From the IMG/VR virus record IMGVR_UViG_3300046501_000233, positions 32,001 to 96,000 of that record: 64,000 nucleotides of DNA; one strand, given 5' to 3'. Source of the DNA: a virus. Under the pieces are notes generated by a model. The model made no database searches, was not told where the DNA came from, and worked only from the letters and a program-made list of their open reading frames with translations. The translations under genes were made by a program, and so were the position numbers. Positions 35,203-47,905 of this stretch are shown here, piece by piece; within the stretch, counting starts at the first letter, position 1, and every line of letters begins with the position of its first letter.

Positions 35203-35278
35203 TGGCTGGGAAGGCAGGACTCGAACCTGCGACTCTCTGATTAACAATCAGGCGCTCTACCAACTGAGCTACAACCCA
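35203..35278 (-). tRNA. tRNA-Asn(GTT)
   Basis: 76-nt cloverleaf: TAGCTCAGTTGGTAGAGC D arm, loop TTGTTAA, GGTTCGAGTCC, encoded CCA; two U-U mismatches in acceptor stem. Confidence 0.93.
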
Positions 35279-41656: not shown

Positions 41657-41934
41657 TCTCTCTCCTGTAGGGCGAAGCCCTCGCTGCAAATTGAAAATCC
41701 CGATCGGGAAGAAATGCCGAGACCGACAAACTCTTCCCGATCGGGAGCAGCCCGTGATCGTGCCAACCTCATGTCGCCTTGCCCTCACAGTCGCGGCGTT
41801 GAAGCGGCGGACTGGATCAGCATGGGGTTTGCGGGGCCGGACACCGCCCAATGTCCTGGTTGATAGCCAGGCCACGATCGCGGGGCAGTTGGGGACCAGT
41901 TCCCTCATCGCGAGGTGCGCCGATCCTTCCCTTT

Positions 41935-46075: not shown

Positions 46076-46420
46076 ATGCTCCCATCGCCCAACGTGTTCC
46101 TCCAAGTCCACCACGACGGCGCATGGCTCACCCCTCGCGACAACCACGGCAAGCGGCTGACCTACGTCATGTCGCGGGCTCTGGCGCGTGAGTTCGTCAA
46201 GGCTGGACGCAATGTCCGGCTGGTCTGGATCGAAGGCGGCGCAACCGCTTGGGATCTGCACAACGGCGCCAAGCTCACCCCTCCCCCCTCGCACGTCAAG
46301 GCGAGGCCCCTGCCGGTCATCCGGCTGAAGCATACCCTCGGACGGGTCGGCAAGCTCGACAAGTCCGGCAAGATCGGAAGCTGGCTCGGCCCCATGATGC
46401 GCGGCGCGCCCTCCCTCTAA
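46076..46420 (+). CDS. hypothetical early protein
   Basis: GAGGT RBS in repeated leader. Confidence 0.7.
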   Translation: MLPSPNVFLQVHHDGAWLTPRDNHGKRLTYVMSRALAREFVKAGRNVRLVWIEGGATAWDLHNGAKLTPPPSHVKARPLPVIRLKHTLGRVGKLDKSGKIGSWLGPMMRGAPSL

Positions 46421-46427
46421 TTCCAAT

Positions 46428-46532
46428 CAGGTGACGGTCAGGCGTGAAGGTACGTCCTGATTAACAGGCAATGTGGTCGCAAACGCCGGATGGCTACCAT
46501 GCACGTTCGATCCGTGCCCTGACCGTCACCTG
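46428..46532 (+). ncRNA. tRNA-like structure with 15-bp closing stem
   Basis: CAGGTGACGGTCAGG/CCTGACCGTCACCTG perfect stem stacked on T-arm GCACG-TTCGATC-CGTGC. Confidence 0.7.
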
Positions 46533-46577
46533 CCCCTCTCCGAAACCATCGACTCTCCCAACGCCACAGGTGTGTCC

Positions 46578-46766
46578 ATGATGACCCAGGCTGAAGCACG
46601 TCAACGTCTCTCCATCAACCGCATGTCGCTGCGTCGCTCCCCCGGCGGGGACTGGCGCGTCGCATTCGCCGACATCCGCGATAACGAGGCATCCGCCTAC
46701 TACACGGACGACCTCGAAGACGCGGTCATCACCGGTGCCGATATGCGCCGTCGCAATCGGAGCTGA
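46578..46766 (+). CDS. small hypothetical early protein
   Basis: WRV.F......EA.AYYTDDLEDAV.T pattern; repeated leader. Confidence 0.75.
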   Translation: MMTQAEARQRLSINRMSLRRSPGGDWRVAFADIRDNEASAYYTDDLEDAVITGADMRRRNRS

Positions 46767-47209: not shown

Positions 47210-47800
47210 TTTCAGGCATATACCAGACCGGGGTTTGGAGTATCCGAGTAGCGATTGATCTCTTGGACCCACCATATCTTGTGTTTGAGGCCTGAGAATA
47301 CCCCGTAATTGCAATTCGCCTTTTATGGCGAGGGTAAGAAGTTGATGACGGACCATCAGCTTGTTCTCGCTGAAAGCCTAATCACAGGTGCTGTTCTGGC
47401 TCTGTAGTGAGGCTTACGGCCACATGAGCTACCTGTCCCCCAGTTCAATGGGACCGGCTCTGTACCCTGTCTATGCCCCTCCTACGGTATGTCTCTCTTG
47501 GGGCCGGTTAGCGCGGGCGGCCCAGGAAATTTGGGGCTTTCTGCGCTTTCGTCTCTGGCTGGTTTGTGAGGCGCGACGACCTCGATACTGTCGATGCCAC
47601 CCTTGGGTCTGGCATCTGCGTGGCTCTCTCCGGCTGGCTCTTCCCCTTGGGGTTTGCTCTGTCCGGCGGCCCTCGAAAAATCCCCTCGGCGATCGAATTA
47701 ATTCGCGGCTGGGGAATTACGACCCGAATTATTCGGGAATTGTTTTGGGCTTTTCAGCCCCTTGCGTAGGTATTTAGAGACCGCCTGAAGCGTCTCTGGA
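47210..47800. other. ~600-bp non-coding hairpin- and repeat-rich island
   Basis: More than ten hairpins, GGCTCT/GTCTCT repeats, GAATTA palindromes, T-skewed + strand. Confidence 0.7.
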
Positions 47801-47835
47801 AGCATCCCTTATCCCACACAACTGCGGCAAATGTA

Positions 47836-47905
47836 TGTTTGCATTTTCACTTGCGCTTCGAAAGCGCATGGTGCAAATGCATGTCGCCGCCAATGCAAAT
47901 GCAAG
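47836..47905 (+). promoter_or_regulatory. TTTGCA/TGCAAA box cluster / probable promoter
   Basis: GCATTTTCACTTGCG resembles 44482-44496; TGCAAATGCA twice. Confidence 0.65.

Follow-up and report, generated by a model that had tools for sequence, protein, structure and literature searches.

Bacteriophage T4 encodes the species 1 and species 2 RNAs (rnaC and rnaD), stable tRNA-related small RNAs of the T4 tRNA region whose function is unknown; they belong to the tRNA gene cluster, and their tRNA-like 3' ends are free. In plant mitochondria, the t-elements are non-canonical tRNA-like folds with a conserved pseudouridine arm, and they direct cuts by ribonuclease (RNase) P and RNase Z that create mRNA ends (Forner et al. 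2007, PMC1920247). Bacterial Y RNAs of the YrlA/Yrn1 kind form a long helix from their ends and carry a non-decoding tRNA-like domain with a T-arm, and in YrlA a closed acceptor-like stem-loop stands between the T module, which comes first, and the D module (Chen et al. 2014, PMC4201824). Here we describe a 105-nt element at positions 46428-46532 (+ strand) of a 64-kb window, the whole stretch of DNA that was analysed, which covers bases 32001-96000 of an IMG/VR virus record (IMGVR_UViG_3300046501_000233; 108,080 bp) that has direct terminal repeats. The element lies in the spacer between two genes, g2 and g3. We tentatively favor the view that it is a tRNA-derived, non-decoding module of the early transcript, which may serve as a processing signal for RNase III and/or RNase P/Z.

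The element resembles the t-elements in being a non-canonical tRNA-like fold with a T-arm and an acceptor-like stem between coding regions, and the role proposed for it, a cis signal for tRNA-processing endonucleases, is also common to both. Moreover, the core motif GTTCRANYC of the t-elements occurs here as GTTCGATCC (46505-46513), in an intergenic spacer without a promoter or terminator of its own. However, the ends of t-elements were mapped experimentally, while those of the present element are predicted; the one belongs to an organelle and the other to a bacteriophage, no sequence relationship connects them, and no long leader-trailer helix is described as closing a t-element (PMC1920247). 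The element may also be likened to the tRNA punctuation of polycistronic transcripts and to operon-embedded tRNAs. With the T4 species 1 and 2 RNAs it shares that it is phage encoded, tRNA related, and non-decoding, but it stands alone between protein genes and its ends are paired. The end-formed long helix and the tRNA-like domain recall YrlA/Yrn1, whereas the element has no covariance-model match, no neighboring rsr gene, and no Ro-binding motif, and its modules run D-AC-T, with the ends leaving the acceptor.

The element is closed by a perfect helix, in which CAGGTGACGGTCAGG (46428-46442) is matched base for base by the complementary CCTGACCGTCACCTG (46518-46532); the inverted-repeat search returned it as 15 nt at 100% match, the arms being 75 nt apart. 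The inner 7 bp and the G after them correspond to a tRNA acceptor stem with its discriminator, and the outer 8 bp join the leader to the discriminator and trailer. Specifically, the leader strand CAGGTGAC (46428-46435) pairs with the discriminator-position G (G73, at 46525) and the trailer, together GTCACCTG (46525-46532), and the acceptor 5' strand GGTCAGG (46436-46442) forms seven Watson-Crick pairs with the acceptor 3' strand CCTGACC (46518-46524). Inside the helix, a D-like stub CGT-GAAGGT-ACG (46443-46454; 3-bp stem and 6-nt loop with GG) is separated by a single T from an anticodon-like hairpin CCTG-ATTAA-CAGG (46456-46468; 4-bp stem and 5-nt loop without U33). A variable region of 32 nt follows (46469-46500) and could form a GCC-GGAT-GGC hairpin at 46485-46494; alternatively, some of this region can pair with 46444-46455, lengthening the anticodon-like arm through G-U pairs on the + strand only. 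The T-arm GCACG-TTCGATC-CGTGC (46501-46517), with the G53-C61 closing pair and a TTCRANY loop, directly abuts the 3' strand of the helix with no spacer. The trailer TCACCTG (46526-46532) is paired and encodes no CCA. The original prediction had described a perfect 15-bp stem stacked on a T-arm, D-like and anticodon-like hairpins, a long variable region, and a base-paired G-TCA at the position equivalent to NCCA; the sequence agrees with it on all of these.

The tRNA-like frame is beyond chance. Canonical T-arms number 3 in the 108-kb genome, compared to 0.14 expected from 200 dinucleotide shuffles; the three belong to a tRNA-Asn (35203-35278, minus strand), which is the only genuine tRNA of the phage, to a site beside the integrase, and to the 105-nt element. 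When the descriptor was extended to a T-arm directly followed by a strand with a 7-bp partner 25 to 150 nt upstream, the expectation fell to 0.05 per genome. The eight further perfect pairs outside the tRNA frame have a chance of about 2e-5 by base composition, and a tRNA gene in decay would not be expected to retain them. In the 64-kb window, perfect inverted repeats of at least 14 nt with arms no more than 200 nt apart number only three. Besides the closing helix, there is a perfect 15-bp repeat at 41698-41746, TCCCGATCGGGAAGA/TCTTCCCGATCGGGA, which lies at the head of the leftward genes with 19 nt between its arms, each of which contains a palindrome. There is also a perfect 14-bp repeat (51472-51485/51610-51623) with 124 nt between the arms and an enclosed fold with a z-score of -4.5; its arms lie inside two adjacent overlapping small reading frames, with an ATGA junction at about 51524 as read from the sequence.

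As in a tRNA, a 7-bp acceptor (GGTCAGG/CCTGACC) stacks in the element on a T-stem of 5 bp that carries a TΨC loop, but the rest of the fold departs from that of a tRNA: the anticodon-like arm is 4 bp with the 5-nt ATTAA (with its closing pair opened, position 33 would be A), the D stub is 3 bp with a 6-nt loop and lacks residues 8-9, and there is no free 3' end, since G73 and the trailer are wholly paired. ARAGORN, both at default and with -ps, found no tRNA in the element, and at the 80% threshold (-ps80) it forced a poor tRNA-Leu(cag) whose D stem has 2 bp and whose anticodon stem is mismatched. Rfam gave no match at gathering thresholds (at least 29 bits for RF00005), and at E<=10 on 351 nt it returned just two irrelevant matches and no tRNA, tRNA-Sec, transfer-messenger RNA (tmRNA), or YrlA. 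Therefore, a decoding tRNA is ruled out, as the original prediction had anticipated in calling a translating tRNA unlikely. A tmRNA is likewise ruled out, with no match by ARAGORN -m on the element region or by Rfam. TAA ends 42 of the 156 open reading frames (ORFs) with high third-position G+C (GC3), and reading TAA as sense does not lengthen the coding total. TAA is thus an ordinary stop, so the UUA-centered loop is not a suppressor anticodon, and ochre suppression or recoding is rejected. A crude ORF count over the whole genome rose from 30.8 to 37.2 thousand codons in high-GC3 ORFs when TAG was read as sense, which is probably an antisense-frame artifact of a GC-rich genome. We also rejected a C4/CI-like antisense regulator, because the genome contains no complementary target of at least 13 nt, and the one 12-mer is about what chance gives.

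A second frame of this kind was found in a related phage. When two complete related genomes and all loci retrieved from relatives were searched for a T-arm plus closing stem, exactly one further sealed frame was returned, in IMGVR_UViG_3300046457_000175 (G003). It lies at L005:4316-4419 (+ strand), about 1.15 kb downstream of the g3 homologue in the same operon, and has the acceptor TGCACGG/TCGTGCA, a canonical D-arm GCTCAGCTGGTAGAGC, a 6-bp arm CACCGG-CAGAC-CCGGTG whose 5-nt loop lacks U33, a long variable hairpin, and a perfect T-arm GTGGG-TTCGAGG-CCCAC. Its encoded G73-CCA is paired to the leader, giving a 13-bp stem that reaches about 19 bp if two mismatches are crossed. ARAGORN names this frame tRNA-Ser(aga), and Rfam scores it as tRNA-Sec at 22 bits, below the cut-off of 47. 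BLAST of this frame found nothing in the phage collection and only 23-nt D-arm matches in 301 Bradyrhizobium genomes. The window element and the G003 frame share the same operon, the pairing of the leader with G73 and trailer, the 5-nt anticodon-like loop, the long variable region, and the perfect T-arm; the G003 frame differs in its canonical D-arm, encoded CCA, and position, and there is no detectable sequence similarity between them. At the site syntenic to the G003 frame, IMGVR_UViG_2524023228_000003 (G001) carries an unsealed frame (L002:4254-4363, + strand) with the acceptor GACTGGG/CCCAGTC, the perfect T-arm GGAGG-TTCGAGC-CCTCC, and an 80-nt aberrant interior, followed by a T-run. The flank common to these two frames retrieved those two contigs only, and the Bradyrhizobium hipponense provirus and phage BDU-MI-1 have nothing at this site. 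It seems from the G003 and G001 frames that non-decoding tRNA frames recur in the early region of this phage group. Conserved motifs of the TTGCA...TGCAAA type flank both frames and are also present at 47828-47849 of the window.

No homologue of the window element itself was found. BLAST against the phage and plasmid collections gave none, and neither did pattern scans of IMG/VR for acceptor plus T-loop, the D/AC segment, or D-hairpin plus T-loop, the last of which gave three matches, all unrelated and apparently coding sequence. A covariance model built from the single sequence (R1), together with BLAST, found no homologue in five related virus records and the B. hipponense genome. On 151 Bradyrhizobium genomes, R1 gave nothing credible, only four weak matches without a T-arm; two of these share a sequence reading as an open frame, presumably a membrane-fusion-protein-like gene, and all four were treated as chance. 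The result on 151 genomes of the same order was equally without anything credible. Metagenome and genome-collection loci were gathered by g3 homology, and among 7 viral, 11 metagenome, and 5 genome loci none has the element upstream of g3; the two best leads, contigs of 962 bp and 50 kb that encode the g3 homologues P0003 (81% identity) and P0004 (75%), are not among these. For g1, the first gene of the g1-g2-g3 series, there is no close relative in IMG/VR.

The single syntenic relative, the B. hipponense provirus (L003, the same locus as L021), carries g1-g2-g3 in the same order. Its g2-g3 spacer is 57 nt. The final ~50 nt of this spacer align with the 45-nt stretch that separates the element from g3; nothing in it corresponds to the element, which therefore behaves as a discrete 105-bp indel. 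In phage BDU-MI-1, an unannotated 226-nt gap lies upstream of the g3 homologue (KY940711.1 105649-105874; L048:7668-7893); it folds strongly (-93 kcal/mol for 260 nt) without a T-arm and may be an unannotated small gene.

According to the above-described anatomy, the module would be transcribed from the g2-g3 spacer as part of a rightward polycistronic message that is probably early. What has been kept would be the part recognized by host tRNA-handling enzymes, namely, a 7-bp acceptor on a canonical T-arm followed by the discriminator G. Host RNase III would act on the 15-bp helix, which stacking of the T-stem would lengthen to about 20 bp, and once the helix is opened, the acceptor/T-arm minihelix could become a substrate for RNase P at G46436, with 3' trimming after G46525. 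Cutting of the message between g2 and g3 would uncouple the stability or translation of the two segments and would also free a tRNA-shaped RNA of about 90 to 105 nt. As for the strand, the T-loop reads correctly on the + strand alone, which is that of the flanking genes, and this motif and the G-U pairs of the alternative extended arm both point to the + strand. The fold z-scores are -3.75 for the + strand and -3.08 for the - strand; both strands fold about equally, so the folding energy carries no strand information.

Several observations weigh against a processing role. The tRNA-like fold (-48.8 kcal/mol) has an isoenergetic competitor (-48.9 kcal/mol), and in the ensemble the probability of the T-arm is just 0.16 and that of the D-like hairpin about 0.2, with only the outer helix and the CCTG/CAGG hairpin (0.8) robust. 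A leader and trailer that are wholly paired are expected to hinder RNase P and RNase Z; thus, the processing model requires a prior RNase III cut or breathing of the helix, and 15 bp is shorter than the roughly two helical turns that RNase III prefers. Furthermore, the closest syntenic relative lacks the element, which is consequently dispensable for the operon, and because there is no homologue, there is no covariation to draw on. The elements of the three phages have no detectable sequence similarity: the alignment score of the window element with the G003 frame is below that of shuffled controls, and R1 found nothing in the L002 or L005 loci. MAFFT did not bring the stems of the window element and the G003 frame into register. 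The three would accordingly be better described as an architectural resemblance, of a kind recurring in the phage group, than as a proven homologous family.

The hindrance of RNase P and RNase Z by the leader-trailer pairing keeps the main rival explanation credible, although we regard it as rather unlikely, in which the released RNA is itself the point: a stable, exonuclease-resistant, sealed tRNA-shaped decoy or sponge would act in trans on a tRNA-binding protein, such as a host defense toxin recognizing the acceptor/T-arm half or a tRNA-modification or -processing enzyme, and the sealed ends would keep the RNA from CCA addition and aminoacylation. The anatomy fits such a decoy as well as it fits a processing module, end sealing recurs in the G003 frame with its encoded CCA included, presence or absence varies among close kin in the way typical of counter-defense accessory loci, and the neighbors are small early genes without assigned function. 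However, no partner protein is identifiable, the lack of an anticodon loop leaves no competition for anticodon nucleases, the element is single copy without its own promoter, and no conservation indicates a binding surface. A broader version, in which the phage group carries a class of sealed tRNA mimics, inert decoys titrating a host tRNA-directed immune effector or sensor, is doubtful; equally doubtful is the corollary that toxins modifying or cleaving the acceptor end would be among the targets and that the turnover among kin would reflect an arms race. The ensemble, in which only the outer helix and the CCTG/CAGG hairpin hold, and the similar folding of both strands would suit a plain long hairpin, either an RNase III site or an mRNA-stabilizing stem resembling repetitive extragenic palindromic (REP) sequences that ends the g1-g2 segment, with the T-arm as a role-less relic of a tRNA gene. 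We consider this unlikely, since a perfect T-stem, a consensus T-loop, and their exact abutment would hardly be kept unselected while the D and anticodon arms decayed, and the sealed G003 frame likewise keeps a perfect T-arm. It is less likely again that the element is a non-functional tRNA pseudogene or a recent junk insertion with a fortuitous inverted repeat: it is indeed a singleton in all collections searched, missing from the syntenic relative, and adjacent to an upstream gene that is itself an orphan, but 15 of 15 perfect pairs, eight of them outside the tRNA frame, and the parallel sealed frame of G003 argue against it.

The perfect 15-bp terminal inverted repeats (75 bp inside) and the clean 105-bp indel relative to the provirus would also be expected of an element acting at the DNA level, that is, a miniature inverted-repeat transposable element (MITE) or a recombination or attachment site containing a tRNA 3' half. 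This is very unlikely. A multicopy MITE was rejected: the phage has a single copy, R1 gave nothing credible in the approximately 300 host-clade genomes described above, counts of the repeat arm in five Bradyrhizobium genomes are at background level, and there is no flanking target-site duplication, CCCTCT being found at distances of 9 nt and 1 nt from the two ends. Derivation from the end of a host tRNA was ruled out as well, for the B. hipponense genome has no site, and no tRNA, matching the 3' half of the element at three or fewer mismatches, and of 401 Pseudomonadota genomes just one has a tRNA with the same acceptor, namely, a tRNA-Ser whose T-arm differs. With respect to attachment, a tyrosine integrase (PF00589, 41.9 bits) is encoded at 22.6 kb of the genome (22618-23340 region), 55 kb from the element, and directly after it, at ~23.25-23.34 kb, comes a 3' fragment of a tRNA-Met(CAT), with the anticodon loop CTCATAA, the T-arm CCTGG-TTCGAGT-CCAGG, and the end CCCACCA. 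This fragment is likely the phage attachment site (attP), so that the phage is temperate and probably integrates into a tRNA-Met gene; the element was rejected as attP on account of this distant integrase with its own tRNA-Met fragment and of the related provirus, which is unsplit at the g2-g3 spacer. Finally, the original prediction had offered a YrlA-like element as one option, and a bacterial Y RNA tethering the Rsr/Ro60 ring by its terminal helix would account for the long helix and the tRNA-like T-arm; the D-AC-T order ending in a long stem resembles Yrn1 of Deinococcus radiodurans (PMC4201824). This option was not borne out and is now extremely improbable: Rfam gave no YrlA or Y RNA match at E<=10, the module order is not that of YrlA, TROVE/Rsr (PF05731) was not found in the 108-kb phage and is present in just one of five Bradyrhizobium genomes, the element lacks the GNCGAA(N0-1)G motif (PMC4201824), and the helix is perfect, without the bulge of a Ro-binding helix.

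The genes around the element place it in the genome organization of a temperate, Bradyrhizobium-type phage of 108 kb, between two putative early genes. Up to ~44.0 kb the genes are oriented leftward and from 45.3 kb onward they are oriented rightward, with a divergent, non-coding region in between; the element occupies the second spacer of this rightward operon, which makes an early status of the flanking genes plausible. The upstream gene g2 (46076-46420, + strand, 114 aa) has its TAA stop 7 nt 5' of the helix and is an orphan in a search of 5.8 billion proteins, its sole homologue, a weak one, being in the B. hipponense provirus. The downstream gene g3 (46578-46766, + strand, 62 aa) has conserved counterparts in Bradyrhizobium phages and prophages; 45 nt separate the helix from the downstream start codon of g3, which is preceded by the Shine-Dalgarno sequence AGGTG at 46568-46572. 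The 56 g3 homologues, from Bradyrhizobium phages, prophages, and metagenomes, all begin MMTQxEARQRL, which fixes the g3 start at 46578 and makes the spacer non-coding. Neighboring genes match phrog_1448 and DUF6197, neither of which has a known function. No promoter-like or terminator-like site adjoins the element, and the next terminator-like hairpin is at 47723; the element is therefore probably cotranscribed with g1-g3.

Sequences resembling translation signals also occur in the element. The 5' strand of the helix contains a Shine-Dalgarno-like AGGTGA (46429-46434), and a GTG 9 nt past this opens a 6-codon mini-ORF (46444-46464) that stops at the TAA of the ATTAA loop. In the 3' strand, CACCTG (46527-46532) is complementary to CAGGTG (46567-46572), which overlaps the g3 Shine-Dalgarno sequence, and a freed 3' strand may mask the g3 ribosome site, through 6 bp only, so that coincidence is possible.

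Phage genomes are usually searched for decoding tRNAs only, and folds such as this one are below the threshold of every detector and absent from Rfam. A single locus cannot by itself carry a general claim; the element is nevertheless a convenient test case, being small, discrete, and easily deleted, with a natural "minus" allele in a syntenic relative. If such frames are decoys, they would represent a new kind of RNA counter-defense. If they are processing marks, these phages would punctuate their early messages through the host tRNA machinery, as organelles do.

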